A DNA stretch of 64,000 nt from Elusimicrobiota bacterium (GTDB taxonomy: Bacteria > Elusimicrobiota > Elusimicrobia > UBA1565 > JACRDR01): NCBI GenBank assembly GCA_016194745.1, contig JACQBA010000013.1, positions 192,822 through 256,821 of the forward strand, written 5' to 3'. The position numbers were made by a program, and so were the translations under genes. Below the pieces are notes generated by a model that ran no database searches, was not told where the DNA came from, and worked only from the letters and a program-made list of their open reading frames with translations. Within the stretch, counting starts at the first letter, position 1; every line of letters starts with the position of its first letter. Positions 1-62,309 of this stretch are shown one piece after another.

Positions 1-3000
1 AAGATCGGAAGGATCGAGTCGGGATAGGCCTCGAGTTCGGAGGCCAAGAGATGCTCCGCCAATTTATCGGTCATCCCTCTTGCGAGAGCCCGAGGGACGC
101 CCGCGTCCGCGTGGCCGGCGCGCACCAAGGTCCCCACCCGCTTGAGCATGTCGACGAGTTCGGAATGCTGGAACATGGACGCCAGTTGGTTGGAATCGAA
201 CCTTGCATTCTTGAGCATCTCCAGGAGGACGGGAATTCGACCCGCATGCCGCCGAGGATCGCGCTCGATCGCGTCCAGCAGTCGCTTCGCCAGCTGCAGG
301 TCGAAGGCATCGAAGAAGGACAGGGAAACCACCATGAAGTTGTGGCGGCCGGTAACGGCGCTGAGCCTGCGGAGCGCGGCGCGCATCGAGCTTCGGAAGG
401 CGAGCAATTCCTCGACGCCGGCTTCACCCCGATCGAGCCTGGCCGTGAACTCCGACATCAGAGCTCTCATCCAGATCTCGACGAAGCTGCGGCCCTCGCC
501 GCGATCGAAGACGTTGCGCTCGGCATAGGCTTCCTTTTTGTATTGGGAATAGAGGTAGCCGTCCGCGTCCAGGAACTCCGGCAGCGGCGTTTCCACGAGC
601 CTGCGAAGCTCCTCTATAGACCGATCCTTCAGGAGACGCCCGAGTTCGCGGGTCTGGTCCGACTCGATCACCTCGCGGAACGTCCGATCCGCGCCGGGGA
701 AGCGCGGGTCCGGCGAGCGAGTCTTCTCGACCTTCGCGTGCCGCTCCAAGGACGACGACACGAAGGAGAAGTACGCGGCGAGCTCGGGCGAGGCCTCGGC
801 CAGGCGGTCGATCCGGCGCTGGACCGCCTCGATCACCTTCTCGTTCCGGAACTTCCTAGCGTCGGGACGCGGTATCTTGTTATCGGGAAGCGCATACTCG
901 TCGAACGCCCCGGTTTTCTCGAGCGCCGCCATGGCCAAGAACTCGATCTCCGCCAAGGAGCGCGCCTTGTCCAGTAGAACTTCGAACTGAGCGAAGTTCC
1001 GCATTCCGCGGGCGAGCTCGAGGAACCGGCTCCTCTCAGTGCCCGCGAGGATCTCCGCCCGCGCCGCGTCCGAGAAATGAGCGACGCGGCCCCAGTCTCC
1101 CCGAGGATAGAGGTCTTGAATGATGAGCTCGAGCCTCCGGATGCGCTCCTGGAGCTGCGGGTGGGTCCCGAACGGAGACTCGACGTCGGTCCCGTTGTTC
1201 GATCTCTTCCCTGCCAGCTGCGCCGCGAGCATGCGGAAGACGAAGGGGGCCTGGCCCACGACGTAGCTCTTGCGTCCATTGGACTTCACGTGCAGCGCCT
1301 CCAGGAGCTGCAGCGCGCGCCAGTCGGCGTCGTATTCGTCGGTGTAGTTCTCGACGAATGTCTTCCTGGCGTTATCGAGAGTCCTCGGCGGCTTCTGCGC
1401 CGCCTTCCCGGACAGAACGTCCTCCCGGTTCTGGAGGATGTGCGTGAGCTCGTGCGCGATCACGAACGCGAGCGCGTCCCTCGTCCCGCCGGCACGGACG
1501 ATGTCCCGAACAAGACCCGTATGGATGAAGACGTGGTTGGAATGCCGGAGGATGAAGGCGTTGCTTTGGGGATCGTCCACGAGATGCACGATGAAGTGGC
1601 GCGGCTCGAGACCCGCCGCCCACAGCAGGTCCTCCGTCATCTCGCGGACCTCCCGATAGAGCGTCCGCAGCTCCGGAGACTTCTCGTCCACCAGGGGCGA
1701 CGCTTCGTGGAGCGCGCTGATGAGCTCCGCGACGCGTTCCGCATCGCGCTGGAACTTTGCTTCGGCGGCTGGAAGCGGGACGGAATCCACGTAGCCGTCA
1801 CCGCGGCGCCGGATGCCCGGTTTGGCAAAGTCGAGCGTCCGCACCAGCGTCGCCGGATCCGCGGGCGCCGCCGCGGTCTTCGCCGCCGGAGCCTTCGCTT
1901 CGGATGGCCTCAAGGACCCGGCGGGAGCCCTGGCCTCCCCGACCCTCGGGCGTAGTGCGGCGGCGCGGCGGAGCGCCCACGCCGCAATCCCAACCGCGAT
2001 CGCGGCCCCGCCGAGCAGCGCGGGCGTCATCCAATCGCCGAACATGGCCGAGACCGCCACTTGCTTGCCGGCGCCGAGCATCGGAGTCGCGGCGCCGGCG
2101 CTCTTCAGCATGCCGTCGATCGCCGTCCAGCCCGCCAGCGCGAGCGTGCCGATGGAGAGCGAGACCAGCGTGCCGCGGCCGCGCTTGGGAGCGCTCTCCT
2201 GCGCCAGCCCGCCCTGGATCACCCGGAGAGAGGGCTTCGTACCGCCGCCATCCGGATTGCGCCCGCGCAGCGCGTCGTCGAGGAGCTTGAGAGCCGCCTC
2301 CGTCCGCTCGTTCCAGTCCGCCGGCTTGTCGCGGCGAGCCTGCATCCGCGCCGTCGCCTGATATCTGTCCGCGTCCGTCAGGCCGTTCGGGCGCTCCGTC
2401 GCGAGCACGACCGCCTCGTCGGGATGGAGGTGGAAGTCCGGCCGATTCAAGGCGATGTTCATCCCCTCGACGACCTCGAACGGGAGACCTGGCCGCAGCT
2501 CGCTCGGGGCGCGTTGCGGTTCGCCGAATTCGCCTACGGACGGCTGTTGGCGACGGAACGTAGGTTGATCCAAGATGGCGCGGACGACCGGCAGAAGGTC
2601 GCCGCCGGGTATCTTGTCCGCCGCGCCGTTGACCTGGTCGAGCAGACTTCGGGTCCGGGCATCGACCGGGTAGCGGCCCTGCCACTGCTCGAATCGCCGG
2701 TCGCCCCACGCGAGGTCGCCGCGGACGCGGCCTTCCGCGCGGTCTAGGTTTTCCTTGAACGCTCCCACGAGCTCCGCGGCCCGCCGAGGCTCGATCCCCG
2801 CGTTGATCAGAGCGCGGTGAACCTCGCGCCAGGGCTCGCTTTCTCCCCACCGTCGCCACTTTGCCACCTCGGCCGCGTAGTCCCCGGCGGCGTTGCGATG
2901 GAACGAGCTGACCCACGGCCTTTCTCCGTCGACGGACTCCCTCGCGCCGATCGCTTCGATCCCAGCCAGCGTGATCGGCGCCGAGCGGTCCCCGCCGTCC

Positions 3001-6000
3001 CGGAAGTGCAGGCCGCCGCGTCCCGATACCCGCAGTCCGAATACCGCGGCGAAAGCGGCCAACGATGCTTTCTGCGGCGTCGGCAAGGACTCGGTCCGGG
3101 GGAAATTCACGTGTCCCGGCACTTCGGTAACCAGGTAGTGCCTCCGAAAAGGCCAGAAGCCGCGAGAGAACGCCTCGGCGCGCGGTACCGAGAGGGCCCC
3201 GGCCAATTCAGCTGGGAGCACGCCAGAGACCGCTCGAAGCGCGAGCTCACTCTCGATGGCCGCTCGGCTGCGCGCTTCCTTAATTAGGTAGAAGCGGCTG
3301 CGCCAGCCGTTTTCGCCGCGAACGGTGACGAGGGTCTCCGCCACGCCTCCGCCGCGCCTCTGCGGGACCGACCACGCGTTCTCCGACTGAGGCGGCCTCA
3401 CGGGATCGAATCCGAGGACTTGGGCCGCGTCGCGGCGGGTCGTCCAACCGTTGGACAAGGAGCGGTTGTCGTTGGCCGGCGATCGGGGCGCGGACCTCGT
3501 CTCGGTCCGCCGCAGCATGACCCCGGCCGTCAGCACGGCCGCCGCCAGGATCGTCCCGGACCCGAGCGTCGTCGCGAGGTCCACCACCGGCAACAGCGCC
3601 GTCGCCAGCGTGCCGGCGTGGGAGACGGTCGGCAGCGTGATCACGGCGGCCCCGAGGATCAGCTTCGGCCCAAGATGCCACCGTCGCGGACCAGGCGCGC
3701 CTACGGGCGGCTCGCGGCCGGCGCCGGGCGAACCGTGCCCGGGCACCGGCGTACCCCGGACCGGAGCCAGGAGCTCTTCCGGGACGACCCCGAGCTCCAG
3801 CATCTCGCCGATCGTCGAACGCATGCGCTCGATGAACGCTTGATTGTGGGTGGCCTCGGAGCCGGGCTCCCACGCGTGCGAGTTCTCGTGGACGACGTCC
3901 TCGATCAGCTTGGTGACGTACTGGTAGTCCTCGTCGGCGGTCGTGCGCCGTTCGGCGACCCGCACGATCCAATCGAAGTAGTCCTTCATCGCCCGGGTAT
4001 TCAGGCTGATCCAATCCTTGCCGAAGACGGCGAGCCGCGGCGATTCCGTGATGCCGAAGCTCACGCGGTACGGCGCGGAGGCGTCGTAGAAGTGGCGCTC
4101 CACCATCGTGCCGGTCACCTGCGCCAGCGCATCGCCGGCGCGCCCGAGGAGGGACGGAGCTCGTCGCTCCGCGACCGGCCGCATGACGCCCGAGATGAAT
4201 GCCGCCAAGAGCTGCCGGCCGCGCTGGCCTCGCTCGCTCGCGACGCTGGCGGGGTCTTCAAACGCCCAGGTGTCCTGCTCAGCCTTGATCATCAACGACT
4301 CGCCGAAATCTCCAAGCGCCTCGCGGATCATCGCGTCGTAGCCCGACAATCCGGTCGAGAGGTTCTCCATCGCGTCCCGGAACGCCCGCCGCGACGGCAT
4401 GTTCTGGGATGCCCCGCCGCCCTGGCGTGACGCCGCCCCGCCGCCGGTTCCCGCCCCGTCCTTGGAAGCGTCCTCCATGATCCGGGCGCTCCTCTGCTTC
4501 ACCATGTCGCGAAGCTTCTCCCGTTCGCGCAGCAGCGAATTGGGGCGGCCGCCGCGCTCGAACTCCACGGACGCGACGAGGTAGGCGAGCAAGCCTCCGG
4601 AGTCGTCCGCCTTGATCTCCTCCACAAGCCGCTTTGCGTTCATGCGGTCCCACCGCGGCCGGTTCATCTTGACCGCCCACGCGAACGCCCTCCGCTCCAG
4701 CGGGACCAGTCTGTTCGCCAAGTGGACCGGTTCGTAGAGGTAATCGGCGGGCAATCCGCGCGGCCGCCAGCGGCTCTCGGCCACGGCGAGCGCCGCTGCC
4801 CGGAGCACCGCCACCAGCACGGCCCGCTGCAGACGCTCCATGTAGCGGTCTTTTTCGGCCAGGCCGCTGCGGTTGCGGTTGAGCACGATGGAATGGCGCT
4901 GCGCCGATAGGCTCGTCGGAAGGTCCAGCGTGAAGCGGCTCGTATGGACGAACTCCATGAGCTCGGGCGGGACGAGTTCCCACACGCGCGGATCCTGCAC
5001 GAGATCCATGACGAAGAAGCCGGCTTGGGTGAGGCGCTTCTTCCGCGACGACGTCTCGACGAGCGCAAGGGCCTCCCCCTTCTGCCACTGAACGGAGGCG
5101 CGCTCCGTCACGATCTCCGTCACCGCCTTGCCGTCGAAGGTCACGGTCGCGCCGCGGCGAGACAGGACTCCCCCGAACGTCTGGAGGCTGTCCCCGATCA
5201 TCGCAGCCTCGAGCTCCATCGCGTCCCGGCTCGACTCAAAGGAGCGGTCGAAGTTCTTCATCCATTCGACGCGTGTCCCGACGAACTCCCCCTTTTGCTC
5301 GGACATCCGCTCGACCTTCCAAACGAAGCTTCCGTCCGCCGCGACTTCCTTATATACCTCCAGGACCGTGTGGCGTCCTCTGCCCCTCATGCCGGTGACC
5401 ACTCGGACGCGATCGGAACCGACCAGGAACTTGTACCAGCCTCTCCCGTTGAATCCAAGGGACGGGTCCTGTCCTTCGCGATGGCTGGTGCTCCCCACGG
5501 ACATTAGGAACCGCAGGACCGAGTAGGGATCCATGCCTACGCCGTAGTCCCGCACGCCCACGACCAGCCGCGACGAGAAGGTTCCGGTCCGCTGGCCGTA
5601 CACGCCGACGTCGACGACCGGCTCGACCCCGGCCTCTTCCGACGCCTTGATCGCGTTCTGGATGCCTTCGCGGACGAACTCGTGCCCCGACTCGGGCTGT
5701 AGCATGCGTTGAAGCGCGTCTTCGCTGCCCGAGAAGCGGCGCTGCGGGAGCGAATCCACGAGCATGTCCACCGTCAGCCGGCGCCCCGCTTTCTCGATGA
5801 AGGCGAAACTCTCCCAGGCCGACGCCAACGTCGATACTAGAATCCCTCTCAACACGCGACCGATGGCCGGCCCGTTGTCCGAGACGATCGGCCGCTCCTC
5901 GATGGGGACCTCGACCTCTTGCCGTTTCAGATAATCGATCAACGGCAGGGACTCCTCGCGAGAGTCTTTCACGAGCAGATCGAAGCGCCCCCCCAGGGAA

Positions 6001-9000
6001 CGCGCAAGATCGAGCGCTCGCTTCTCGTCCGCCCCGAGGACTCTGAGCCAGCGTCCTACGATTTGATTGAAGCGCGCGTCGTCGGCCACCGTCTCATGCA
6101 CGCCTTGGAGGAATGCAAAGGCTTCCCGCTGATGGCGCTCCATCAGATTGGAGACGCGCGACGCCCAGAGGGGCTCGTTCTCCCGGCTGAGGCGGTCGAT
6201 GGTCGGGATCTCCACGAACGGCAGCCCGAAGCCGAGGCGCTGCAGGCGTTCCGCCGGCCACGACAGACGCAGCAGGTTCTCGGCCAGGCGCAGTCGCTCC
6301 GCCTCCCGGAGGCCCGAGGAGAACTTCGGCAGCGAGGAGAGCGCTCCGGCGCCCACGTGCATCATGCCGTTCGCCGAGTCAGTCAAGCGCCATAGGCTCT
6401 TGCTGTCCTTGCGGGACATGACGATGACGCCGCCCGTGGTGCCCCTGCCAGTGAAAATGTGATACGGGGTGCCGATGCCCGGGAGAGGCACGAAGCGGCC
6501 CTCTTCGATTCGGCCGATGATCGAACCGTCTGAATAGGAGTTGTCCGCGACGATGACCTCGCTTCCGAAGATCCTGAAGTACGAGCCGCGAAGTCCCTCG
6601 AGCGGCACCCATTGATTGCCCTTGAGGACGTGACCCTGGCTCAGGTTGCGCTCCCCCTCGATGCCAATGAACGTGAATCCGTTCGCCAAGGTCGAGCTGG
6701 AATGGCGCTTGCCCGGCGGGTTGTCGATCGGAACGATCTGGCCGTCCTTGATCCAGAGATAGTTGTGCCGCCCATGGACCAAGACGCCGTCGGCATCGAT
6801 GCGCTCGATGAACGGTTGGTAGTCGTAGTCCCTGTCCTTCTTCAGCTCGCCGAGCTTCGCCGCTCGATCCCCGCTCAGCTCGTAGAACTCGGTGAACGTG
6901 CCGTCCCGGCGCTGGACCTCGAACTGAACGACTCTGCGGCCGGATCCGAACCGCTCGGAGAACAGCCCGCCGTAGGGCGACATGCCCTCCATCGGGATCA
7001 TCCGGCCCTCGTGGAATCGATGGACCCGGATCTCGCCGCTGTCCATGCGCTTGAGGAGGTACCCGTTGTCGGTGAGCGGGTCCGCCACATGAATGATGTA
7101 ATCCGGCGTGACGCCCCTATGCTCGACGACCCACTCTTCGCCCTTCCGGACCTGGATCTCGAAACTGTCATCGTTCCCGCGGAGCACTCCCACGTAGACC
7201 TTATCCCCGTGGACGGCGTACGCGGTAACCTTCCTGGCGTTGAATTTGCCAACGAGAATCGCGCGTTCGCCTCTGATCTCGTACAGGGCCGCCCCGTCCG
7301 AGTGCATCGTGGCGATGAACGTCCTTCCGTCCAGGACATGGACGCGATCGATCCATCGCACGTCGGAGATCCCGTCGATCTTCACGCCCCTGCCTAGGTT
7401 GCCCCGTACGTGGAAGACGCCGACTTCGCCTGCCGAGTTCTGCGCGACCGTGAACTCTCCGCCCCGCCCGCTGACCGGCGACCATCCTTCCATGCCCGGC
7501 AGAAGTCCGGATCGGCGCCCCTGAAGGAGGTAGTACGCCGTATTTCCCCTCTCGTCCGTCACGGTGACGACCGGCGCCCGCGCGCCCTCCACCCGTTGGA
7601 TATTGCGGACGTGCCTCATGCCGTCCACCACCTCGAGCCCCTGAGACGTCGCATAGTACAGCGTCAGGAGCTTCTCCGTTCCGCCATATGAGCCGTCCGG
7701 CTTTGCCGGCAATTCCCTCGACGTCTCGGTCAAGACGTAGCCGTCCGGGATAGAATGCCCGCCGGAACCTCCCCACTCGCGAGGCCCAAGATGAACGGTC
7801 ATCTGAGAAATCGCTTCATAGGGGAGGTTAGGCGCATGGCGGTAGACCTGGACGATCCTCGCCAACTTGGCTTTCAACTCCGCCGGTGACGCTCCGGTAC
7901 GGAGGAGATCTCGAACGACAGGCACGAGGTACTCGTGCAGCCCCGGGCTGACAGACCGCGGATGCTCGGACGCGTCCAGCCCGGCGAAGAAGCGCTCGGC
8001 CGCCGCCTGCGCGACCTTGAAGGGATCGACCGGAACCGCCTCGCGGGCGGGCGTCCGCTCCTGCGTCGGCGCGACCGTCGTCTCCGCCTCCGGCCGCACC
8101 GCGTGCTCGGCTCCCGCGCCGACGTTGAGCAGCACCGCCTCCGGCGGCGGGCGCTTGCCGTAGTCGTGCCAGACGTTCATGAAGGCGTTGAGCAGCATCG
8201 GCCCGAAGCCCTTGAGCGCCCACTTCATGTGCCGGTCGACGAGCTTCGAGTCGAAGAGGATGATGCGGTCGCCGACGCGGACGAACAGCGTCTTGAGCGG
8301 TACCGACCATAGGGCTTTTCCGTTCCCCGGCAGCGCCTTGCCGCCCACGGTCTCAGGGTTGAAGTCCCACAACTGCGAGTCGAGGGCGACGGGGGTGCGG
8401 CCCCGGAGCGCCTCTCCCCTCAAGCTGCCGAGCAGCCCGGCGGGGACGACCACGAAGTCCGCGTTCGCCGCCATCCGATCGACCGCCGCCGCGACGCGCG
8501 TGCGCAGGTGCTCGAAAAGGTCGTCCTCCTTGCTTACGCTCTCGACTCGGTTCTTGATACGGTTCTCGCTGTTGTTGATCTCGGAGAACGCCGCCGCGAG
8601 GGCGTTGAGCACGGGCGCCAGGCGCTCCGGGTTCTTCTCGAAGGCGACCAACGTTCGGTCGACGAGCCGCTTCAGGGAGTCGATGGCGTTCTTTCCGAAC
8701 ACGATCCGTACCCGGTCCTCCTCCTGGGTCACGCCGACCGGGAGGTCGACGATCACCGATCGCGCCACGGCGTCTCCCTTGACGGGGATGCGCTCGACGA
8801 TCGTGCCGCCGACCGCGATGACGAGTTCTCCCTCGCGTCTGGCCTTGCCGCGGCCGTAGAAAATCGATTCCTGCGCCACTCCTTCGCCGCGGCTCAGCCC
8901 GCGCGCAAGCTCGCCCGCCGTCCGGTTGCCGGAGGCGCTCGGGATAGTCAGGAGCTCCGCCACCGTCGTGGGGCCGAGTCCGCGGCCTTGGTCCCGCACC

Positions 9001-12000
9001 ACGATCTCCCGGCCTTCTCCGGCGATCTCGACCCGGACCGGCCGGCGGTCCCCGAGCCGGTAGTCGACCGTCTTTCCCTCGACGGTCAGGTATGGATCGA
9101 GCCCGTTGATCCAAGTCTCGAGATTCCCGTCATTGAACAGGATCACGCCGCGCCGGCTCAGGCCGAGGCGATCGCGGAGATTGTCGCGCAAGCCGACGGC
9201 GTCGACCGCCTCGTTCTTCCTAAGCCGGACTTCGGCAAAGCTCTCCGTCGCGGGCGGAACTTCGCGGCTGCCCATACGGAGCCACAGTTCGCCGTCCGCG
9301 CGATGGAACTCGACCCAGTACTCGCGGCCGGGATGCTCCTTCGAGACGCCGCGGAAGGTCACGCTCTCGCCGTTCGCCTTGACCCAGCCGACGGCCTGAT
9401 AGACGCCCATCCCGAATCGGCCGATCGCGTCGCCCATCGCGTCGAAGCCGTTGTTGACAAGCTCGACGATCGCCTGACCGGCGGTCTCGGTCTGCCGCGT
9501 GAGGTCGGTGTCGAGGCGGGCCGGCTTGAAGAGGAAGCCGTCTCGGACCGCCTGTTCGGCCATCCTCTTCATCGATTGGGCGAGCGCTTCCGGAGAGGCG
9601 TCATGCAGTGCTTCGGTATAGAGTCCCCGGGTCCGGGAGAGCGCATCCTCGTTCTGGTCGCGCAGATGACGCATCAGAGAGACGTAAAGGTCCGTCCTCA
9701 TGCCGTGCTCCTTGTGGACGAAGGCCTCGACCGAGCGCTGACCTGAAAGGGTCACGGGATCGAGCGGAGGCGCCGCGGGGCCTTTGATCTTCTCCAACGC
9801 GGTCCTCAGGAATCCTCGGGGTGCCGCCGGAGCGATCGGCCTACCCGCCGGCTCCTCGATTCGGGCCGTCGCCTCGCGGCTCGTGGCAGCGCGTCCCTTC
9901 GCCCATCTCACGGCGAGCCAGCCGCCGACGGCCGCGGCGCCCGCGGCGGCCAGCGCGACGAGGGGCACGATCCCCGCCCCGTCCGAGAAGACCTGGCCAA
10001 GAGTGTCGGCCCTTGCCCCCGGGATGCGGCCCATCAGCGCGGAGGCGAACGCGAGCGGCCCGGCGATCAGGAGAGCCAATCGGGCCGCCATGTCGGAGCC
10101 CCGTCCGGGTTCCTTCGGAGCCGGGCCACGCATCGACTCGAGAAGCTCTTCCGGCGCCACCTTCTTCCTTGCGATCTCCATCAGCGTATCCATCATGCGC
10201 CGCAGGAACGCCGCGTCGTGCGTCTCCTTGCCGCCGGGCTCCATCGAGTGGGTGTCCTCGTGCACGACGCCCTCGAGAATCTGGCCCAGCGCGTCGAAAT
10301 CTTCGCGCGCCGTCGTCTGGCGCCGCTGTGCGCGGCCGACCCATTCCAACAGACCCTGCGCCCGCGCAACGTTGAGACTGAACGAGTCCTTCGTGTAGAT
10401 ACCGATCGTGTCCACGTTCTTGCGTCCGAAGCCGACCGAATAGCGCTTGTCCGCATCTCGGAAGCGTCCCGGCATCACCGGGTCCATGAAGCCTTTGACC
10501 AGCGTCGAGAAGAAGCCCCTCTGGCGGCGCTCTTGTCTCGTCAGAGTCGCGGAATCTTCCTTGACCCAAACGCGATCGGAGGCGGTCTCGGTCAAGCTCT
10601 CCATGCGGGCCTCTTGAACCTCGCGAACCATCGAGGCTAAGCCGGCGGGCAGCGTTTTAGGATCGACGGTCTCCCTCGCGCGCGCCGCCCGATGCAGTTC
10701 CTCTCGAAGGCCCGCCAAAGATTGGGTCTTGCCGTTCCATTGGAATTCCGCCGAGGCGACGATATGGGCGAGGCGGGAGCCGCCCTCGTCGTGCGCGAAT
10801 GCGGCCTCGATCGTCCTGCGGTCGGCCGAAGGCCACCGGTCGCTTCCCAGCGCGCGGGCCGCATCCATCGCACTCGCCCGCAGACCGGCGGTCGCCTGCC
10901 AGTTCGCCTCGGCGCGGTAGAGATAATCGGGAGGCAGGCCGGAAGGAGTCCACCGTCCCTCGGCCGTCGCGACGGCGGCCGCCTGCACGACGGCCGCGAG
11001 CACGGCCAACTGCAGGCGCTCGAGGTACCGTCCCTTCTCCGCCAACCCGCTTCGGTCCCAGTCCAGCGAGATGGAGTAGCGATGCGCTCTGGAGCTGGAC
11101 GGCAAGTCGAGGCTCAGGCCCTGCTGGCGTACGAAGTCTCGAAGCTCTTCGGGCACCAACGTCCAAAGGTCCGGGTCGCGGAATACGTCCCCGATCCACT
11201 GCCCGGACTGTAGGAGCCGCCGCTTCTTGGAAGACGTCTCGACGATCCGCACACGCTCGCCTTTCGCCCACTCCACTCCACCGACCTCGCGGACCGTCTC
11301 CGCGAGGTCTCGGCCGTTGAAGTCGAGCGAGACGCCGCGGCCGCCCAGCGCTCCGGAGAATGTCTCCAGGCTGTCGGCGAGGAGAGCGGCCCGCAGGCGC
11401 ATGCCAAATCTTCCGTCGTCGCGGCCGCGCGTTACGGCAAGCCATTCGATCTCGGTCCCGAGGAACTCCCCGCGAACCTCGGCCAGGCGCGCCACCTTCC
11501 AGACATAGCTCCCGTCCTCTTGGTAGTCGCGGACCACCTCCAGCACCGTATGGTGCGACGCACCCCGCTTGCCGGTGCGGACCTGCACGGCATCCGAACC
11601 CGCGAGGAACTTGTACCAGCCCCGGCCGTTGAAGCCGAGGGCGGAGTCCTCGTTCTCGCCGCGTCCGCTGCGATCGATCGGCAGCAGGAAGTTGAGGACT
11701 TCATAGAGGTCCATCCCGACGCCCCGGTCCCGAAGCCGCGCGGCGAGGCGTTCGCGGCCGCCCACGCGGCGGGTACCCACGCTCAGCTCCACGCGCGTCG
11801 GCTCGGGCGACTTCACCACCACCGGCCGGCGGGCCACCCAGGCAATCAGCGCGCGGCCCCAGCCGGCCGCTCTCGCCGCCCAATTCGAGATTTCCCGTCC
11901 GCCGGCGTTGATCCGTTCGATCGCTTTCAGGGCGTTCTGAACGCCTTCTCGCAGCTTTTCGTCGCCCGCGTCGGGCCCCTGCGCGTCCCGGATGGTCTTG

Positions 12001-15000
12001 TTCGTCGCTTCAAACCCCGTCTCGGGCGCGCCCTCGGGGAGGTCGGCCAGCCGCAGCGCGTGTCCGCGACGCTGCACGACGCCGAGCCTCGCGCGGGCGG
12101 TCGCGAGCTCCGCGAGCATCATGCCCGAGCGCTGGGCCAGCACGCGGTCCCCCTCGTCCTCCCGCTCCAAATGGCTGATGGTCTCCGATTTGGCGTCACC
12201 GCGCAGGTATTCCACGATGGGCGTAGCCCGCTCATTCAAGGCGGCGAGGATGGAGTAGCGTCCCGCCAGATACTCAATCGCGTCGAACGCGGACATGGGG
12301 TTCGACTCGAGGACGTCGATCAGCCGGTTCACGGCGTCGTTGAACGCCCGGTCGTCCGCTAGCACGCGGCCCGCGCCCACGAGGAAGGCGCCAACGTCCC
12401 TCCGTTCGAGCTCGGACCAGCTGCGCATCGCCTCGGCCAATCGCGCTTCGACGGCCGACGACAACCGCGACAGCGTCGCTCCGTCCGCGAACGGCAGCGC
12501 CCAAGCCAGACGTCCCCAGCGCGCCGCCGGCCAGTCCATCGACAGCAGGTTCGTGGCGAGCCGGACCTTTTCATCGGACCTCAAGCCGGCGGTGATCGCG
12601 ACGCCGAGAATCTCCCGCGTCACCGCATCCATGGAAGCGTCGCGGATATGGGACGTCGGGTCGGCAAGGTCGCGGGTTAGCCATTGATGAGAGTCCTGCC
12701 GCTTGTATGCCGCGCGCAGACGCCCAGGCTGATCGCGCACGACCATCAGCTCCTCGAGCCTCGTCATCCCGGGCAGCGGATCGGCACCCGACGCCGTAAG
12801 CTCGAAGAGAGAGCGCGCCGTCTCCCGCTGTGCGACCCAGAAATGCGTCTCGACGAGCCATCGTCCGCCGCCGAGCCGGCGGAATTGATAGGGCCGATGC
12901 TGCTCGACGGCCGCGCGATGCGCCAACCCCGGGACCGGCTGTGCGCCGCCGCCCCGGACCTCGTACAATTCGAAGTGCAGATCGTGCTCTTGGACCGAGA
13001 CGAATATCCTGCTGCCGATCATCCGGACTTCGCCCACGCGCTTTTTGCCCTCGATGCCTGCGATCGGGATCACCCGTCCTTCGTCCAGGACGGCCAGGGT
13101 CTCCCGCTCATCGCCGATCTTGCGCGATTCGCGGTCCTTGACGACGACGAACGTGCGTCCGTTGAGCTCTACCGGATGGTGCACGCCCATCCCCGCCCCC
13201 GCCTCGATCGTCCGCGCCCCATCGCCGCGCAACTCCATCTCCACATAGTTGCCGCCGCGATTGACCATCGCGATGGCGCGGTCTCCGACGAATTCCAGCA
13301 TCACGATCCTATCCGCGTCGACGCCAGGCAGCTGCACCGGCCGGTTGGCTCCGTCGCCGATCCGTTGGATCTGTCCGCGCTCCTCCTCCGAACCGAGGTG
13401 GGCGACCAGGCGATCGCCGATGAAGCCGAAGGAGTAGATGATGTGGTTGTGGGTGACCAACCGTTCGGCGCGATTTCCCTTGAGTTCGTAGAGGCTCTCG
13501 ATCAACGTGTCATGGCCGTACGTGGGCCTCTGTTCCGTCGCCTTAACGAACAACCGGCCTTGTATCTCCACGACGTCGTCGAAGTGCTCCTTGTCCCTTA
13601 GGCCCTCGATCGGCTCGGCCTTGCCGCCGCGGATCTCGTAGAGCGTCACCGGCCGCCGCCAATCCACGTTCTTATCGATCACCCAGACGAACGTACGGCC
13701 TCCTGCTTCCGTGACCGATCCCACTGCGTCCCTGTCTTGGAGTCCTTCCACCGGCACGACGCCGTCCGGCCCGCCGCGCAACAGCGAGAACTTTTCGCCG
13801 TCCTTCGTGACGATGTACTCACCCTCCGGGCGGAAAGGCGTCTTTCTTCCGGGCATCTCGAACGGGACTCCAAGGAGCGCGTCCGACGGGACCCGCTGCT
13901 CCATCATCGCCAGCACCGAGCGGACGCGCTCGAGACGTCGGGCGATGGTATCGCGGTCCACGCCGGCGACGAGCCCGTCGACGACCGCGGGATGGAGCTG
14001 ATCGGCCGACTCCCGGAGCTCCGCCCGTTGGAGGAGGTCCCTCGCCGGCGCTTCGTGGTCGAGCCGCACGCCCCGCGTCGCTCGTACGTCCGGCGCGTGC
14101 TCGCGGTGCAGGCCCGGCTCGGCCTCGATCGGCGGCTTCACCCCGTAGCCGCTCCACTTCCGGACCATGATCATCACCGCCAGCATCACGGGTGCGTGCC
14201 CCGGGAGAGCCTGCGCCTGATAGTGGTCGAGCAGCTCCTTGCTGAAGAGGATCATTTCGTCGCCAATCCAGGCGATCGGCCGCTCCATCCTGACCGACCA
14301 CATGCTCTTGCCCGAGCCCGGCACCGGGACGCCGCCCAGCGTCGCTGGATCGAAGTCCCAGAGCCGAGGATCGAGCGGTATCGGCCGGCGACCCCCGAGC
14401 GCTTCGGTGCTCCAGCCGAGTTCCTCGGCCACCGCCGGCACCGCGACATGGTCTTCGCCGAAGCGGCGGACGATCTGGGATACGCGCTCCCGAAGGTTGA
14501 GCAACAGGTTGTCGCCCGAAGTCGTCCCTTTCACGCGGCTAGCCTTGTGAAGCTCGTGGAGCGCGGCGGCGAGCCCATTGACGACGGGCGCCATCTCTTG
14601 CGGGTTGCGCTCGAACGCGACCGAAACCTCCCGGATCGCCCTCTTCATCGACGCCAGAGTCGGCGCGTCCAAGATGAGCTGCGTTCGCGACGGCTTGAGT
14701 GAAATCCAGCCGGGCAGACTGACGACGATCTCGGGCGCGACGTTGACGCCCTTGACCTCGATCGACTCGACGACGGCGCCTCCCGCGGTGATCAGCACTC
14801 TGCCCCGCTGGGCCGGCGCGTCCGCCCCGCGGTAGTAGACCGACTCCGTCCTCGGCAGTTCCTCGCGGGCGACCCGGAGCTCAAGCTCCGCGGCCGAGGG
14901 CTTCGTCGACAAACCGGGCACCGGGAGCGTCTCCATCGCCACGGTCGCCTTCATCCCTTCGCCGGTGTCGATGACGCGGATCTCCCGCCCTCCGTCCAAG

Positions 15001-18000
15001 ATCATCACCCGTATCGGTTCGGCGATCCGATAGCCGGCCTCGCTCCCGTCGAGGGACTTGTAGCCGTCGAGCCGGTTGATCGGGCGCTCCGTCCCGTCGG
15101 CCAGAACCTCGACGACCCGGCCGCGCGACGTCGGCCCGAGGCGGTCCGCCAAGAACTCGCGCAGCGCCGCCTCGTCCACAGGGCGGCTCGATCGGAACGA
15201 CCACTCGGTGCCGGGCTCCCGCAACGGCTCCGACGGCGCCAGGCGCAGGTAGAGGTCCCCCGAGGACGCTCGCTCGAAGTCGAGGGCGTAGCCCTTTCCG
15301 GGCTCCGCGCGCGGCGTGCTGCGGTACGATAACTGGTCGCCCGCGTTCACGAGCCGGCCGAGCGCCATGAACGCGCCGACTCCGAAGCGCCCGTTCGGGT
15401 CGCCGAGCGCGTCGAAGCCGTTGCTGATCGCCTCCAGAATGAACTGGTGCGGGTCGCCGGAAGTGCGGTGGAGGTAGGCCTCCAATCGCTCCGGCTCGAA
15501 GAGGAATCCCTTCGCGACTCTTTCGGCGGCGATGTCCCGCAGGACATTGGCGACGTCCTCGCGCGATCTCTCCATCGCCGCGAGATAGCGGTCCCTGTAC
15601 GCGTTTCGCTCCGCCTCCGGAAGATCCTGCAGGTGCTTCATGAGCGCCACGTACAAGTCGAGCCGCATGCCAAGCTTGGGATCGACGAACGCGCGGAGCG
15701 CTCGCTCCCCGCTGAGCGGCTGCCTCGAGACCAGTCCTCCGAAAGCGCTATCCAAAAGCCCGCGGGCGCCGGAGATCGCCCTGCGCACCGAGCCGTTCCG
15801 CATTCCGTAGAACGCTCCGATCCCCAGGACTCCCAGCGTGATCAAGGTGCCCACGGTGCCGCCGCTCAGAACGTCGCTCGCGACGAGGCCCGTGGAGGCC
15901 CATCCCTTGGCGGCTCCTACGAACTGCGCTCCGAAGAGGGTGACGCCCACCACTCCCATCGGCAAGAGCATGCGGAGGACGCCGCGGCGGGCGCCGGCGT
16001 CGTTCCGCTCGGCCGCCGCAGGGCCCTGCCGAGCGAGCCGGTCGGCCTCGGGAAGCCGAGCCGTGGCTCCGGGCTCGGCCATCGTCCGATCCAGCAGCGT
16101 TCTGTCCCTCCGAGGCAGCGCCAAGAGCGATTCGGTTTCGAGCCAATGGCGCACACCGTCGGCCTCTCGAGACGAGCCGCGCCGGAACGACCCTCCCTCC
16201 TTGATGCCGGCTGTTTCCGGAACGAGCCGGAACACGGTGTCCCTCAGGTCCGCGCCCATCCGGAAGAGCTGATCCGCCACCTGCGCGAGGAAGCGGCCCG
16301 GCAGCTCGTAGTGACCGGAGTGGTTGTCCAGGTTGACGATCTTTCCGTTCCTGACCTCCATATTGCCCGCGAAGGCGACTTCGCCGCCTCGGACCACCCA
16401 AGGATGGTCCCGATCTTCGGAATGCGGCACGGCAAAAATCTCGACGGCGCCGCTGTTCTCATTGAGCCTCATCAGCAGCAGGTACTTGCCGTCGAGCAGC
16501 CGACCGTCGACGATCGGGCGTCCCTTGTCGATGTCCACCCGGTACTTCACCGGATTCTCCCGGATGTGGGTATCGGTGGAGAATCGGTTCTTGACCGGCC
16601 GAAGCTCGAGGGGCGGCGTGGTGCGGAGGACCGTGACCGGCCTCCGTTCCTGGGGAGCGGACTGCGCCGCCCGCCATGCCTCGGCGTAGAAGGGGCGTAA
16701 GGAGGCATGCAGGCGCGTCGAGTAATCAGATCCAAGCCGGTTCGCGCGGATCAGTTCGCGGATGTCCCGCAGGTCCTTTTCCCGGTCCTGTTGGAGTCCG
16801 GACGCCAGTTTCAGCTCGATCATCTCGCGCAGCTTGAGCACCCGGACCCCGCCGATTTCCTGCGACGCCGAGACCGGTTCGGGGAACGCGAGGTCCTTCG
16901 AGACGCCCTTGAACGGAAGCTCGCCGGTCACGATGAAGTCGATGTTTACGCCGTGCTGCGCGTCGCGGAGCCGCTTGATGCTGTCGCTCCGGTGCGTGTA
17001 CCCGAGGTTCGCCAGCGCTTCATGAGCCCGCGCCAGATCCTCCTTTTTAACAAGCACGTCGATGTCCGGAGTCGAGCGCGGGAATCCGTGCGCGGAAAGC
17101 GCCAAACCACCCGCTAGGGCGTATGGGATCCCCGCTCGATTGAGGCGCTCCACGAGCGCGTGCAGGGCGGCGTGCACCGGGATGTTCTCCGAGAAGGGAG
17201 ACCGTCGCGCCGCGGAGATCGCAAGCGGCGCAAGCGGCTGGCTCGCAGGCCGCACCGTGAGAACGACGCCGATGGCCACGGTCGCAGCCGTCAAGATCCT
17301 TCCCATGCCTTGGCCGACGGCGTCGGCGGCGACCGACGCGTTGCCGATGTCGAAGGAAAGACCTAAGAATAGAGCCGACAGGGCGCCCGTCACGGCGAGG
17401 GCGGGGAGCCAAGACCGGCGGACCGGACCCGGGGCGCGGGGACCCGCCGAGGCCGGCGCTCCGCCTGTAAGCGCTCTCCAGAATCGCCGCGGCAGGCTCT
17501 TCGGAGCCTTGCGCAGGACGAAGAGATGGCCCTTGTCGGACCTGTCCGTCAGGTCCAAGACGATCTCGGGATGATTGGCCTTGAGATGATCCACCAGCGC
17601 GCTGATCTTGTCGCCCGAGTACGTGTTGAACCGGATCGTCCCTCCCGCCTCGGTGATGCGGATCATCTCATCGAGCGCTTTCGTCGCTTTCGCGGGCCCG
17701 TCGCGCAGCAGCCAGTACATCAGATTGGCGGCGACCACCTCGCGGAAGGACTCGTCCGCAACGTTGATGCGCGGGAGCCGGGCGACAATCCGACGCTCCG
17801 GCGGCAAGAGATTTCGCGCGAACGCCTCGACCGCGGGGATGGACCTTCGGGAGTTGACGCCCGACGAGCCTCCGGAGATCTTGATCAGGCCATGCTGATC
17901 GATATCCTCCGGCTTCAAGCCGTACCACCAATCGGCAGAATAGATATCGACTCCGTCTTCATGGAGCTTCCGCGCAAAGGTGGACGCGCCCTCTCCGATC

Positions 18001-21000
18001 GACAGAACCCGCCCTCCTTCCTTTATAAGCCGTGCCGGCGTGCGCTCGCCGTATCCCAACTGCGGCGCAACGCCGTGGTAGTCCCTGGAAGTGACTTGAG
18101 TGTCCGTTTCGGACCTGGCGAAGAACATCGCCAGCGACTTCTCTGTCCACGGTTCACGGAACATCAAGGACTCATCCGAGGCCGCTCTCGTCAGGTCGGC
18201 CGGCAAGGGAGATCTTCGCCCGCTTCGTTCCATGAGCGCGCGGACCCGGTTCAATACGCCCAAGCCCACGATCGCCCCGGCTAGAGTCAGGCTTCCCAGG
18301 TTTCCGGTCATGCCGTCGAATACGATCATCGTCGTGCTCGCCCAACCGCTGTCGACCGCGAACTGCGCGCCCAGTAGCGTCGCGGCCGCGACGGCCAGCG
18401 GCTTGAGCATCTTCGGACCGCCGCCTCCGGGCGTCTTGCCGCCGTCGAGAACGGACAAGGTGATGGAGCCGGGCTGCGGCCGCCGGCCGGAGCCGGAGGG
18501 ATCGGGGACCTCCGGATTGTGCTTCCAATAGCGCTCCACCGCGGCTTCGACGGCGGCGGCCGCCTCGATGAACGCGCTGGACAGGATCGTCGTGGAGCGG
18601 CCCTCCCGATCCACGACGCGGGCGTCCGTGGCCTCGCGGATGTCGCTCAGCCATCGTCTGAAGGAGTCACCCCGACTGACCGTACCCACCCTCAGGAGCA
18701 TCTCCCGCACCGTGCGCCAGTCCCCTGTCTGCCGGAAGTCCGCCACCATGAGGGAGGCGGCGACGTCTTGATGGTCCGACAGGATCGTCCGCAGGCTATT
18801 TGAGCTATTACGTCCGGAGCCTTCAGCTACGAGGCCGACGTGCTGCTGCAGCTCGGTCCAAGCCTTAAGATTCGCATCAAGCTCGTCGACCACTTTCGGG
18901 CGCCCGCTCATCTCGGTCTTCACGTCGGCGAGCGACCGACTCGTCGCCAACAGACGCAACCCCAGGCTCCACGCCATCGGGCGGTCGTCCTTCTCCACCA
19001 TGACGTTGATATAGTGCGCCATGGCCTTCAGATGGGGGTTGGACGTCTGCTCGTTGTACGCCACCGCGGTCAAGGCGAACGCCGCGAACTCCCGCCGGTC
19101 GCGGTCCTTGGCGGAGGAGGCATCGGCCAGCGCGTCGCGACCCATGTTCACGAACGAGCGCAGATCGAGCCTGCCCCCGCGATAGGCGGTCAAGAGATGC
19201 GACAGAAGGGCCTGCACCTCCGGATTCCCGCTGTCGCGTCCGATATCGCGCCACGTTGCGAGCTCCTTAACAAGGTAAGGAGTCGGGTATTCGTTGCCCG
19301 TCTCGCCGCGCAGGTCATAGCCCCGAAGATCGACGGGCTCGGGATCGCGCTCGCGCGTCGGCACGACCGTCAGCTTCGCGGGACCCTTCGGCGCTTCCGG
19401 CCGCCGGGACTCCGCCGCCTTGGGATCCCCTCCGACGACGCTAAATAGCGCCTTCTTGCCGGCGAGCTTGAGCCCGATCGCCTCCTCCGTCACGCGCGAC
19501 CACTCCGAGACGGACCGGGTGATCTCGCGGCCCGCGATCTCCTGCTGCAGCTTCGACATGTCCTTCAAGAGCTCGAACGCCCGAGCGTGGCGGTTGGACA
19601 TCATGGCGACGTGCCGCAGGTTCCGGGAGACGGGGTGGTCGTTCCCGATGTACTTGATTAGACTCGCTCGCGCCTCGGCGTCAGTCATGGCGCGCGCCAG
19701 CACGATGGCGGAGAAGCGCATCGCGACTTCGATGGACTCGGGATGTTCGCCCTTCGGGAAGTGATCCAGCTGCCGGCGCAACTGGTCTCCCAGCGTGTCC
19801 TTGCGGCGATCGGCCAAGTCTATCATGCGCATGAGAATGTCCAGATGCAGTCCGATTTGGTGTGCGAGAGCGCCGCGGTCGATGATCCCGCGCAGGGTCC
19901 GCTGCAGCGGGTTCCTGTCGTTCGCGGGATGGAACTTGGCGAAGAACGCGCCCTGGATGCTGTGCTCGCGGTCCTGGTAGCGCTGCCGATGGGTCGCGTT
20001 CGCCGCGCCGGTCTCGGGCTCCACGGCCGCCCACGCTTCGTGGAAGAACGCCTCCGCGAGCTCGAGGTGAGGATCGCGTGCCGTCTTGACCGCCGCGAAG
20101 ATATCCCGCGCCAGGCGAACTTCCGCCCTCCTTTCGCGGGTGCCGGTCGAACCGTACCCGAGGACGTAGTCCTCCAAATCGTGGATGGGAGCGTCGAACA
20201 CGCCCAGCTGGAACCTCTCGGGGCCGTCCTTGAGCTTCCACGACTCGGGTACGCGGTCGCCGCGTCCGATCGAGCGCGCGATGGCGCCGACGAGGCCCTG
20301 CACGAAATCCTTGTTCACGCCGTCGTACGTTTCCGCGCCGCGCAGAAGGTAACGGTCGAAGGCCCCCTGCAGCGCCTCCATGTGTGGGCCGCGGTCCGGG
20401 ATCGCCGCGGCGTTGATCTCGCCGGCGCGGACCGATCTCAACGAACTCTCGCCCTTTCCGATGAAGCTCTGTTCGCCCGATCGTGGAGCGAAGGGATCCG
20501 AGAGATTGGGGATGATCCCACCGCGGCTCCAGGGGCCCGTGGAGATCGGCCGTCGCTGGAGAATGACGATTTGCAGCTCTCCATTCGGCAGCTGGCGGAC
20601 GCCGGGCTCGATGTCGAGTGGGTAGCCGTAATAATCCTCCAACGCTCGCGCGATCTCGACCGCCTTGCGCACGGCTTCGTGAGGCCAAGAACGGATGAGT
20701 CGCTGAGCTCTCGGAAGCAGTTCGGTCACGGTGCCGGACATGAGGCTCGGCTTCGTAAAGTGAGTCTTCTCCGGAATGGTCAGGCCGATCTCCCGACCGC
20801 CCCTGTCGTAGGACCATACGTATCGATCGGAAGCCCCCGTCGTACCGCCGACGCCCGCCCCTATGCCGAAGTTTCCTTCCAGCACCGCCACGCGACGGCC
20901 GGTGGTCGGATCGACCGTGAACAGCACACCCGAACTTCGCAAGTCCATGGCCTGCTGTAAGATGACGGCAGGGTCCAGGTCGATGCCCGGACGCCCGTCG

Positions 21001-24000
21001 CGGCCCACGTTGGAGAACCAAGTGCGGCGGTATAGGACACTGGATTCGGTCCAGAATGATGCATAGACGTCGGCGACCTTATCCAGCACCTCGTGGTACG
21101 AGTGGAATACGAACGACTCCGCGATGCCGGCTCCCGAGGCGGCATGAGAGTCCTCGGTACCGGCCGAACGAATCGCCCACGTGATCGTCTTGGCCTCCTC
21201 ACCGAACTCCGCGACGAGGCGCTTCAAGATGCGCGCGCCCAATGGGGTGTCCTTGTTGAGCGCCTTAAGACGGATATCGCCGATCAGCTTCTCCATCTCT
21301 TTCAGGAGACTCTGGAACCTAGCCCGCTCTGCGTCGGCTCCGTTCTCGAATTCTCGGCTGCGGATGATCGCGTCCATCTCGCGGACGACACGTTCATAGC
21401 GCTCCTTGGCGCCGGCCGCCTCGATAGCCATTCTCCAGACCCGCCCCGAAAGCCCTACGCCGTCCGGGACGAATCCGTCCAGGGCCTCCACGATCTTTCG
21501 AGTCTCCCGGCCCAGAGATACTGTCTTGGCGCCGAACTCAGCCTCGTGCTCCGGCCCGAGTTCGCTGAGCCGGAGCGCGATGTTGACCTCCGCCACCCGG
21601 GCATCCCGCCGTTCGACGAGAGTCTTTTCGGAGCGCTGCAGATCGGCGAGCGCCTCGACGCGATCCATGGCCCGAGATATCCAACGGGCGACGGCGTCCG
21701 GGAACGAGGCCGAACTCTCGCGCTGCGCCCTGGCACTGCGGACATGCACGGCCTCGATCGGATTCGTCACGCCGCCCAAGCCGTCTCCGGCAAAGTCGGC
21801 AGCGTAGAAAGTCTTTCGTAGCGCGGAGGGGTACAGATCCATCATCGAATCCATGGTCGCGCGTTCGACGGCGAGCACGATGTCCGCCGCTCTGACCTCC
21901 TCGGGCGCCGCCTCCCTGACGGATCGGACCATGACGCGGATTCCGGCCTGCTGATATTGAGCGCGCCCGACGCGGTCAACGTGCTCCGCCACGGCGCGGG
22001 AACAGGCCGCACCCTCGCACAAGAACAGAACGTTGACGCGCTCGGTCTTGGAGAGCCAGTTCGGCACGAGGCGATACAGGATTCGGCTGACGAGCGGAAG
22101 AACACTCTCATCGCCGCGCTCGGCCGCCTCACGCATTAGGGCACGCTGGGACACGGCTTGCTTCAGCCAGGCGTCCCGATCCAAGGCGCGCATCGCTTCG
22201 GCGAATTGGAATCGCCTTTCCACATCCGCCGCGTGCTTGTCGATCGTCTCCCGATCCAGACCGAATGCGGAAGCCAATTGGCGAAGACCCTCGATCCGGC
22301 GCCGTTTGCTCAAAAGAAGATCCGCCTCGTCGCGGCCTGACTGGCTCAGTTCGAGGCGCGCGGTCGCACGCTCCGCCTCGATCAACGCCGCCGCGAAGTC
22401 TTTCGCGTGATCGCGGACCGCCGCGATGCTCGCGATCTCCGCGAAGATGCGAGCGCGCACGTCCGCGGTCAGGCTCTCGTCCAGCAACGCTTGCCTCAGG
22501 GCGAACTCGACGACGGTCCTCCCCTTCACACCGGTCGGATCACCCGCCGCCTCCCGCGTGATCATCTCCGCCAGGACGTTGACGAGCTTGGAGGCCTCGG
22601 GGCCGAGCGCCGCGATGTTGGATAGAGTCCTGCGGATCGACTCGATCGCCGGAGTGACCTTGACCACGAAGCCGTTCGGATCGACCATGACCACGTCGCC
22701 CTCGCGGATGATGACGAACTCACGCTCCATGGACCTCACGTGCAAGTCTCCGGCCTTTCTGGCCTCGCCGACGCGATAGATCGGAGCCCGCAGGATCGGT
22801 CGACCCTGGGAGTCAAGTTCCAAGCTGGCTCCGCGCAGCCCGACTGCGGGGGCCTTCCGCTCTCGAATGAGATTGTCGCCATGCGTCAATTGGCCGACGC
22901 TCGTGAAGACGAAGCCCTTTGCGACTCCCACGTGCGTATCCGAGGCGCTCACCGGATTGAGAGCGACGAGGATGCCCCCGCTGTTCTTGCTCCAAGGCGA
23001 TTCGGCGAAGAACACCGCACCAATCTCGGGCCTTCCGCGTCCAGGAGAGGCCGTCATACCGAGCAATTCGCCTTCGGAAGCGTGCGCCGGCAGTGCAGCG
23101 TTCAGCATCTCCCGCCAATGAGCGCTCTGTCCCCGGGTTACGGGATCCGGCGCCTTGATCACGAAGCCTACCTCCTCGAGGTAGCGGGACAGTTTCCTGA
23201 AACCCATCGGGCGCAGCCCGCCGTTGCGCCACTCGCGCGCCGTAGCGTAGGCGACCTTGCCGGTCTCATCGCGGAGCATCCAGATCTGCACGCCCCGCTC
23301 TGCGTCGCCTTCGCCGTGATGCCACTGCGCGACTTCGACCCGGAACCGGCCGATCTCACCTACGATCATGATCGGAAGTCGGGCGGCCTCCGCGACCGAA
23401 AGGATCGCCCCAGCCCTGACGAGAGCGCGGCTGCCGCTCGCCCGCGACAATCCGGTCCCTACGGCCTGCGCGATCCTTTCCGAGACTGAAACGGGGGACC
23501 GCTCGTACCGACCGCTCGAATCGACGACGTCTCCGCGGGCCACCGCCATGCGGATCTGGCGAGTGAACTGCTCGTCGATCACACGCTGACCGAAGGGTTG
23601 GTCTTCCGGGATGACCTTGAGGCCCAGCCGCGCCAGCTCGGCGTTCAGGGTCTTGAGGACGGCCCGGTCCCGCGACGCGTTCTTGCCGGGCAGACCGTCG
23701 TCCGCGCGGTGGCGAGCGCCTAGCTCGCGGCCCATCTCCTCCGGCGAGCGCCTGCGGCCGTCGGCCGTCTTGTCCACACGCCTCGCGTAGTCGCCCAACT
23801 CCAGCGTCGAGCCGATCGTTTTGAACAACGGAGCGATCGTTTCGTGGATCGTGAGCGAAGAGCTCGGGAAGTCCCGCTTGTTCCAAGTGACGGCAGCCGA
23901 TCGCTCGGTCGCCACCGCTTCCGGAAATCCGATCGAGCCGAGGGCAGACTCTAGGAACGACATCCGGAACTTCGGATCGTCTCCGCCCTGGCCTTCCGCG

Positions 24001-61633: not shown

Positions 61634-62287
61634 ATGCGCGACGCTGATATCCACTCGATAGTGCCCATCCTAAAGCGCGAGGTACGGCGCTGGAAAGTCC
61701 CGGTCGTGGGGGTCGTGGCGGAAGACGAGGACCCATTCCTCGTTTTGGTCTCGACGTTGCTCAGCCTGCGCACGAAAGACGCGGTGACCGAAGCGGCCGG
61801 CGAGCGCTTGTTCAAGCTCGCGCGCACGCCGGAGGCGCTGCTCAAGCTCCCGCTCAAAACCATCGAGCGCGCGATCTATCCCGTCTGCTTCTACCGCGTC
61901 AAGGCGAAGACGCTGCGCGGCGTCGCGCGAGACTTGATCGATCGCTTCGACGGACGCGTGCCGGACGATCTCGACGCCCTCCTCTCGCTGAAGGGCGTCG
62001 GCCGCAAGACCGCGAACCTCGTCGTCACGCTGGGGTTTCGCAAGCCGGGCATCTGCGTCGACATCCACGTGCACAGGATCTCCAATCGCCTCGGCTACGT
62101 CCGCACGAAGACGCCCGACGAGACGGAGGCGGCGCTGCGCGAGAAGCTCCCGCGCAAATACTGGATGATCTTCAACGACCTGCTCGTGCCGTACGGGCAG
62201 AACCTATGCGCTCCGGTCTCGCCGTGGTGCAGCCGCTGCAAGATCGCGGCGTACTGCAAGAAGCGCGGCGTGACGCGCAGCCGCTAG
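61634..62287 (+). CDS. nth: Endonuclease III (base-excision-repair DNA glycosylase/AP lyase) of the HhH-GPD family, with a C-terminal 4Fe-4S cysteine cluster
   Basis: Translation contains LLSLRTKD, LLSLKGVGRKTANLV (helix-hairpin-helix Gly/Pro-rich loop region), DIHVHRISNRLG and C-x7-C-x2-C-x5-C (CAPVSPWCSRCKIAAYC). Confidence 0.85.
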   Translation: MRDADIHSIVPILKREVRRWKVPVVGVVAEDEDPFLVLVSTLLSLRTKDAVTEAAGERLFKLARTPEALLKLPLKTIERAIYPVCFYRVKAKTLRGVARDLIDRFDGRVPDDLDALLSLKGVGRKTANLVVTLGFRKPGICVDIHVHRISNRLGYVRTKTPDETEAALREKLPRKYWMIFNDLLVPYGQNLCAPVSPWCSRCKIAAYCKKRGVTRSR

Positions 62288-62309
62288 CCTAGTTGTATAA
62301 TCCGGACCG

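Follow-up and report, generated by a model that had tools for sequence, protein, structure and literature searches.

A giant gene and its repeated HExxH motif

The present analysis concerns a 64,000-nucleotide stretch of an Elusimicrobiota genome (assembly GCA_016194745.1, contig JACQBA010000013.1, positions 192,822 to 256,821; hereafter the window) and, within it, a module carrying an HExxH motif that recurs three times in one very large protein and represents a new, very rare and uncatalogued zincin-like family. A six-frame stop map revealed a minus-strand frame without a stop from 61328 to base 3 (20,442 codons), and the giant open reading frame (ORF) within it occupies 96% of the window and runs off its low end. 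In each 1,000-codon block of the ORF the GC content at third codon positions (GC3) is 0.80–0.88 and that at second positions (GC2) about 0.48, and the probability of meeting no stop in 20,442 codons of this composition is around 1e-209. Together, the stop-free frame, its coding GC3 and these odds indicate that the window is essentially one giant gene of more than 61 kb, which would rank among the longest bacterial genes. The N-terminus of its product resembles a signal peptide (MVRFVRLFKKFLAIVVSASLL...AWA). The ORF and the three copies of the module, with residue positions in amino acids (aa), are as follows.

3..61319, minus strand: giant ORF; ATG at 61319, at least 20,439 codons, 3' end beyond the low window edge
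37521..38078, minus strand, aa 7751-7936: zincin-like module, copy 1; HExxH at 37644-37658, third His at 37614-37616
10125..10577, minus strand, aa 16918-17068: zincin-like module, copy 2; HExxH at 10248-10262, third His at 10218-10220
3753..4274, minus strand, aa 19019-19192: zincin-like module, copy 3; HExxH at 3876-3890, third His codon at 3846-3848; holds the interval 3846-3935

The interval 3846-3935 had been singled out by an earlier, sequence-only reading of the window, which described a conserved motif, VVHExxHxxEPGxxETHxxAF, in three repeat copies. On the plus strand it has no meaningful translation; on the minus strand it translates to DEDYQYVTKLIEDVVHENSHAWEPGSEATH, and the three HExxH motifs share one minus-strand frame. 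The copies have the sequences VVHENSHAWEPGSEATHNQAF, VVHEDTHSMEPGGKETHDAAF and VVHEHTHALEGTGEETHNDAF, giving the pattern VVHE(HT/DT/NS)H..E(G/P)....(E/A)TH(N/D).AF. The elements VVHExxH, TH and AF are thus identical in all three, but EPG is found in two (EGT in copy 1) and ETH likewise in two (ATH in copy 3). An upstream block given as D-W-[IL] holds only in part: it reads (R/K)DWISLN in two copies (1 and 3) and KDSFSLN in copy 2, and the VRDWLDW that had been aligned with it belongs to a separate, later block (a helix with W-L-D-W) in another alignment column.

Although there are indeed three copies, they are not small modules but the C-terminal domains of much larger units of a single minus-strand ORF; the strand, the giant gene and the units had escaped the sequence-only reading. 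Self-comparison of the protein by BLAST gave three repeats of approximately 2,000 aa, 35–45% identical, with the motif at the C-terminal end of each. From the N-terminus, each unit comprises a first GHKL ATPase, a variable middle, a second GHKL ATPase with its transducer, a helical linker that opens with RSGLAEK..Y.ERLQ, and finally the HExxH domain.

37509..43424, minus strand, aa 5969-7940: repeat unit 1; GHKL-1, variable middle, GHKL-2, helical linker, zincin
9930..15716, minus strand, aa 15205-17133: repeat unit 2; architecture as unit 1, in tandem with unit 3
3600..9857, minus strand, aa 17158-19243: repeat unit 3; GHKL-1, variable middle, GHKL-2, helical linker, zincin
42549-43061, minus strand: GHKL-1 equivalent, unit 1
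14949-15461, minus strand: GHKL-1 equivalent, unit 2
8964..9491, minus strand: GHKL-1 ATPase-like core, unit 3; ELVNNGFDA ... DQGRGL
38649-39401, minus strand: GHKL-2 equivalent, unit 1
11139-11981, minus strand: GHKL-2 equivalent, unit 2
4959..5696, minus strand: GHKL-2 ATPase core, unit 3; N-box REGIQNAIKA, G1 DYGVGMD, G2 GFNGRG

That the HExxH...TH motif is real and far beyond chance is confirmed by its position at the ends of paralogous repeats, by the same residues being invariant in relatives, by the excess of HExxH in the giant protein (seven observed against 0.64 expected from composition) and by the coding character of the frame. In a window of 67% GC with many long spurious ORFs one might suspect an HExxH arising by chance in DNA that is non-coding or read in the wrong frame, but this is refuted by the length of the stop-free frame (20,442 codons), by its coding GC3 throughout and by the preservation of the motif in relatives from other genomes, and its probability is negligible.

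The first ATPase block follows the pattern E..NNGFDA ... D.G.G across the units. The second has the hallmarks of the GHKL/GHL group, namely a Bergerat fold, the Glu and Asn of the N-box, G1 (DxGxG), G2 (GxxGxG) and a transducer; its pattern is RE.(V/I)QN..KA and D(R/Y)GVGM in the units, the last two of which also have GFNGRGWYK. Invariant positions are the Glu and Asn of the N-box and the glycines of G1 and G2, and histidine kinases score only about 6–7 for this domain, so that the partner ATPase is of the GHL type and probably dimerising. A model of a 716-aa block (overall predicted local distance difference test score, pLDDT, 61.8) was used for its ATPase part only, the packing of zincin against ATPase being unreliable. 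A view of the whole block as an Hsp90 N-M-C homologue was not supported.

Conservation, fold and family relations of the module

Relatives of the module are few. When 1.84 billion protein representatives were searched exhaustively with a HMMER profile of the module alone, 16 matches were returned, 15 of them true relatives; the other, P0016 (E 1.2e-4), was a false positive, being a repeat surface protein of Gram-positive type in which the motif is absent. Among 5.8 billion clusters, a word-indexed search matched the stretch from GHKL-2 to the zincin in two proteins, a word-indexed homologue search with the profile gave only P0013, and scans for the module found one locus in the 185,579 species-representative genomes of GTDB and one in JGI metagenomes. 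The long relatives are of 1,856–5,875 aa and carry the unit once, or twice in P0006, always with the same domain order. Apart from P0006, labelled only 'bacterium F11', all taxonomically named relatives are 'hypothetical proteins' of Elusimicrobiota. Five of them (P0006 and P0008–P0011) share a signal peptide and a conserved N-terminal domain of about 550 aa (HIQD.H...EAQ.NIA, GLEGA.G, GGFH) that precedes a cluster of transmembrane (TM) segments; Pfam found no match in this domain of P0008, P0010 and P0011, nor did BLAST of the relatives' domain against the window protein.

Across the 15 module sequences the mean column identity is 38%, and the only invariant residues are the H, E and H of HExxH (H115, E116 and H119 among the invariant columns of alignment A2), a third His, the Phe at position +4 from it, and one Pro. 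Conservation therefore reaches beyond HExxH, as the sequence-only reading had implied. The signature can be written as HExxH, 9–12 variable residues and [ST]-H-[ND]-x-x-F-x-x-x-M, from which the first copy of P0006 deviates with P-H-D at the third His. The Glu of HxxE is replaced by Asp in P0006 and by Lys in P0015 and so is not a conserved third ligand, which leaves the invariant His of [ST]-H-[ND] as the candidate and, judging from the alignment, the likely third metal ligand.

The AlphaFold2 model of the module, built from a five-sequence alignment (pLDDT 77.5, predicted template modelling score 0.74), has a long helix (14–38), three strands (70–75, 82–85 and 88–92), two helices (97–107 and 113–133), a loop, and a last helix (145–160). 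HExxH lies at 129–133, on the helix 113–133, and is followed by an 11-residue loop with the third His and then by the next helix. A mixed sheet precedes the active-site helix and the whole resembles solved zincins, including a fold match to Wss1.

No Pfam or NCBIfam model matched the three window copies at E<=10. When the 15 members were scanned singly against Pfam, the only families matched by more than one member were SprT-like (three members, E 0.066–0.08, best 13.5 bits) and WLM (two of 15 at E<=10, with no match in any window copy; the better at E 1.1e-4 and 22.8 bits), and the consensus of the family hidden Markov model (HMM) matched SprT-like only (E 0.14). All these matches span the stretch from HExxH to the third His. 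Among the other families proposed for comparison, DUF4157 (PF13699), M90 and M91 gave no match at E<=10 with the window copies, the 15 members or the consensus. The sub-threshold matches in some relatives and the predicted fold agree in pointing to the neighbourhood of WLM and SprT, although the module belongs to neither Pfam family.

The differences from well-known zincins are clear. The earlier statement that the spacing is unlike that of thermolysin, metzincins and M48 was borne out. The module reads HExxHxxE(P/G)..., where position +3 is not Gly and position +6 not His, and so lacks the metzincin signature (HExxHxxGxxH/D plus a Met-turn); there is no invariant Glu downstream of HExxH as in gluzincins; and M48 peptidases (HtpX/BepA type), which use a distant Glu as third ligand, gave no match at E<=10. 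In the WLM family (Wss1; PF08325) the spacing is HExxHx5H, whereas the third His of the module is 9–12 residues on, and the module is bacterial, fused to GHL ATPases, adjoins membrane hairpins and lacks any ubiquitin-like, SHP/VIM or SUMO-binding context. A possible likeness to SprT-like proteins (SPRTN, E. coli SprT/YggI; PF10263) is seen by eye, in that HExxH, a variable loop and H-x-x-x-[FW]-x-x-x-M can be picked out when HELAH...HGKEWKWMM of E. coli SprT is set beside HENSH...HNQAFIERM of the module. The evidence points to a distant relationship to the Wss1 and SprT proteases, with the module as a minimal zincin of the WLM/SprT type with three His ligands rather than an unrelated new class. 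The suggestion of a possibly new zincin-like module is partly supported: the module is zincin-like and in no curated family, but not unconnected to known zincins.

The invariant Glu of HExxH and the nearest folds suggest peptidase chemistry, and the module would be expected to bind zinc. A metal-dependent hydrolase other than a peptidase (a nuclease or phosphohydrolase, YbeY- or YgjP-like), re-using the minimal zincin scaffold, appears quite unlikely: YbeY has HxxxHxxxxxH without the catalytic Glu, but H-E-x-x-H is invariant in the module; proteases account for the best folds and for all recurrent sequence matches; and no nucleic-acid-binding domain was detected in Pfam scans. More improbable still would be a structural or pseudo-enzymatic domain, in which a zinc-stabilised or dimerisation element replaces the C-terminal domain of an Hsp90-like N-M-C arrangement and performs no catalysis. 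Where the sequence-only reading had left a catalytic and a pseudo-catalytic site side by side, the former is the more likely, with catalytic-type residues kept in every copy.

Membrane context and proposed mode of action

Hydropathy identifies paired hydrophobic segments 61–109 aa past each HExxH of the window, and two M48 peptidase domains lie further on.

37161..37331, minus strand, aa 8000-8056: hydrophobic hairpin after copy 1, predicted (Kyte-Doolittle)
9915..10079, minus strand, aa 17084-17138: hydrophobic hairpin after copy 2, predicted (Kyte-Doolittle)
3513..3662, minus strand, aa 19223-19272: hydrophobic hairpin after copy 3, predicted (Kyte-Doolittle only)
36693-36788, minus strand, aa 8181-8212: M48 peptidase domain (HtpX/BepA-like), HELSH; 315 aa after zincin copy 1, beyond the hairpin
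1428-1655, minus strand, aa 19892-19967: M48 peptidase domain (HtpX/BepA-like), HELTH; 812 aa after zincin copy 3, beyond the hairpin

The distance of about 100 aa that had been given between motif and hairpin is approximate, the intervals from HExxH to the first hydrophobic segment being 109, 61 and 76 aa. Nor is the hairpin an obligatory partner: P0002, P0004 and locus L003 stop about 30 aa after the module, and TM segments follow it in the other relatives. The combination of hairpin and M48 domain resembles an HtpX-like module, so that the hairpins could be part of M48 and not of the zincin. Lys and Arg residues number 3–6 in the outer flanks of the three hairpins against 0–1 in the connecting loops; P0009, P0010 and P0011 have one, three and three hydrophobic segments, respectively, between their signal-peptide-led N-terminal domain and the unit; and several domains of the giant protein use ATP. 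These features favour the cytoplasmic side, and the zincin is probably located on the cytoplasmic face.

The reading that we favour, with moderate confidence, is that the module is an active, membrane-tethered cytoplasmic metallopeptidase, a WLM/SprT-type zincin with three His ligands, that ends a GHL-ATPase unit. It would form a small domain (about 140–170 aa) with the motif as its metal-binding centre. The two His of HExxH would lie one turn apart on the active-site helix, with the Glu as general base, and the third zinc ligand would be the His of [ST]-H-[ND]-x-x-F, 9–12 residues on at the start of the next helix. The conserved (K)DWISLN strand, some 43 residues upstream of HExxH, would serve as the edge strand for pairing with a peptide substrate. 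Each zincin of the window would be tethered by the hairpin downstream of it, placing a metallopeptidase beside the membrane, with access of substrates governed by an ATP-driven GHL clamp in the same unit. Such a division of labour would be like that of FtsH or of Cdc48 and Wss1, built from different parts. FtsH (AAA+ with an M41 zincin) likewise joins an ATPase to an HExxH protease in a membrane assembly, and Cdc48 is an ATPase that feeds a WLM protease, but the ATPase of the unit is GHKL/GHL and not AAA+, and its protease a minimal zincin with three His ligands and not M41; the analogy is one of working and implies no homology.

A number of observations weigh against this reading. The module model was built from only five sequences, the zincin geometry of its three His is presumed, and the Foldseek E-values were not significant. 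No curated model reaches its Pfam gathering cut-off (for WLM, PF08325, 22.8 against 26 bits; for SprT-like, PF10263, 13.5 against 25.6 bits). No zincin was found among PDB sequences with a profile of 15 sequences or with the unit and consensus as queries, and hhalign of A2 against E. coli SprT, with a single-sequence template and so at low sensitivity, gave a probability of 0.7% and aligned the wrong region. The TM segments were predicted from hydropathy in a protein rich in Ala and Gly. The window protein starts with a signal-like sequence, and most of its hydrophobic segments thereafter are paired, which would favour an extracytoplasmic location. In P0004 (1,856 aa) a signal-like N-terminus stands directly before the GHKL unit, with no TM segment; this start may be mis-called or may be a real exception, and at face value it puts the ATPase domains outside the cytoplasm. 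Finally, a coupling of ATPase and protease is suggested only by their invariant gene fusion.

The placement of the module within the protein also bears on a different role, that of a self-processing polyprotein, in which the zincin, perhaps with M48, would cut in cis at unit boundaries to release membrane-tethered machines of about 2,000 aa. The module is always at the C-terminal boundary of a unit, and at the very end of the protein in P0002, P0004 and L003; units 2 and 3 are in tandem with only a hairpin between them; single-unit proteins occur as free-standing genes in relatives; and cleavage by peptidases has been proposed for giant proteins of Omnitrophota (10.1101/2023.11.21.568195). Against this, no conserved cleavage motif turned up, although no search was aimed at one, and single-unit relatives retain the domain with nothing to be cut from; we consider self-processing unlikely. 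It is conceivable, though speculative and on present evidence doubtful, that the unit is an ATP-driven, membrane-tethered proteolytic machine of a kind not known before, in which a dimerising GHL clamp (like Topo VI-B, MutL or Hsp90) hands substrate to the zincin, and that the same protease also cuts the polyprotein; the unit would then be an equivalent of FtsH built on GHKL and restricted to Elusimicrobiota.

Giant proteins elsewhere and other features of the window

The giants of Omnitrophota ('Archaeovorins' and related proteins) run to tens of thousands of residues, with many TM segments, and are mostly unannotated; domains that recur in them include HATPase_c and PPDK_N (10.1101/2023.11.21.568195), and one proposal gives long Omnitrophota proteins a membrane anchor and cytoplasmic domains (10.64898/2026.06.07.730766). 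The window protein shares with them its great length, many TM segments and the PPDK_N and HATPase_c domains, but belongs to another phylum (Elusimicrobia) and has no Pfam match to SecA_DEAD, dockerin or glycoside hydrolases. Within the available portions of the same two texts, term searches gave no mention of zincins, metalloproteases or M48, and no description of a GHKL-GHKL-zincin unit was found; targeted full-text literature searches likewise found no pairing of a GHL ATPase with a zincin. The WLM/SprT branch of zincins thereby gains an uncatalogued family, recognisable by HExxH-x9-12-[ST]H[ND]xxF and seen only in invariant fusion with GHL-type ATPases, which provides a first functional handle on giant Elusimicrobiota proteins annotated as 'hypothetical'. 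If either coupling or self-processing proved true, there would be a concrete model for the organisation and maturation of bacterial giant proteins, a matter raised in the Omnitrophota literature.

Beyond the units, little of the giant protein can be assigned. Pfam scans of 4,900-aa pieces gave almost nothing, the matches across the whole protein being limited to the two M48 domains, PPDK_N, NTP_transf_5 and a weak HATPase_c, and PADLOC gave no match. The first part of the protein (aa 1 to about 5,900; about 43,500-61,319, minus strand) shows neither a Pfam match above noise nor an internal repeat. Elsewhere in the protein a second and weaker repeat (about 28–38% identity) has a hydrophobic hairpin in both copies. 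An additional HExxH, LLHELFHYKLG, occurs in a region without a family match, and an HESPH looks incidental. The upstream neighbours of the giant ORF, at 61634-63915 of the window, are ordinary housekeeping genes, one of which, the glycosyltransferase, has identical copies on contigs of about 2 kb in Logan SRR12113409/10.

33528-33542, minus strand: HESPH
30234-30248, minus strand, aa 10361: LLHELFHYKLG
20538-21536, minus strand, aa 13265-13597: PPDK_N (pyruvate phosphate dikinase AMP/ATP-binding, ATP-grasp); Pfam E 7.5e-26
18240-18779, minus strand, aa 14184-14363: weaker internal repeat, one copy
16932-17192, minus strand, aa 14713-14799: NTP_transf_5 (uncharacterised nucleotidyltransferase), E 4e-9; between two hairpin pairs, just upstream of unit 2
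15798-16319, minus strand, aa 15004-15177: weaker internal repeat, other copy
61634-62287, plus strand: endonuclease III (Nth), upstream neighbour
62310-63488, plus strand: Glyco_transf_21-type glycosyltransferase
63475-63915, minus strand: short-chain dehydrogenase fragment, upstream neighbour

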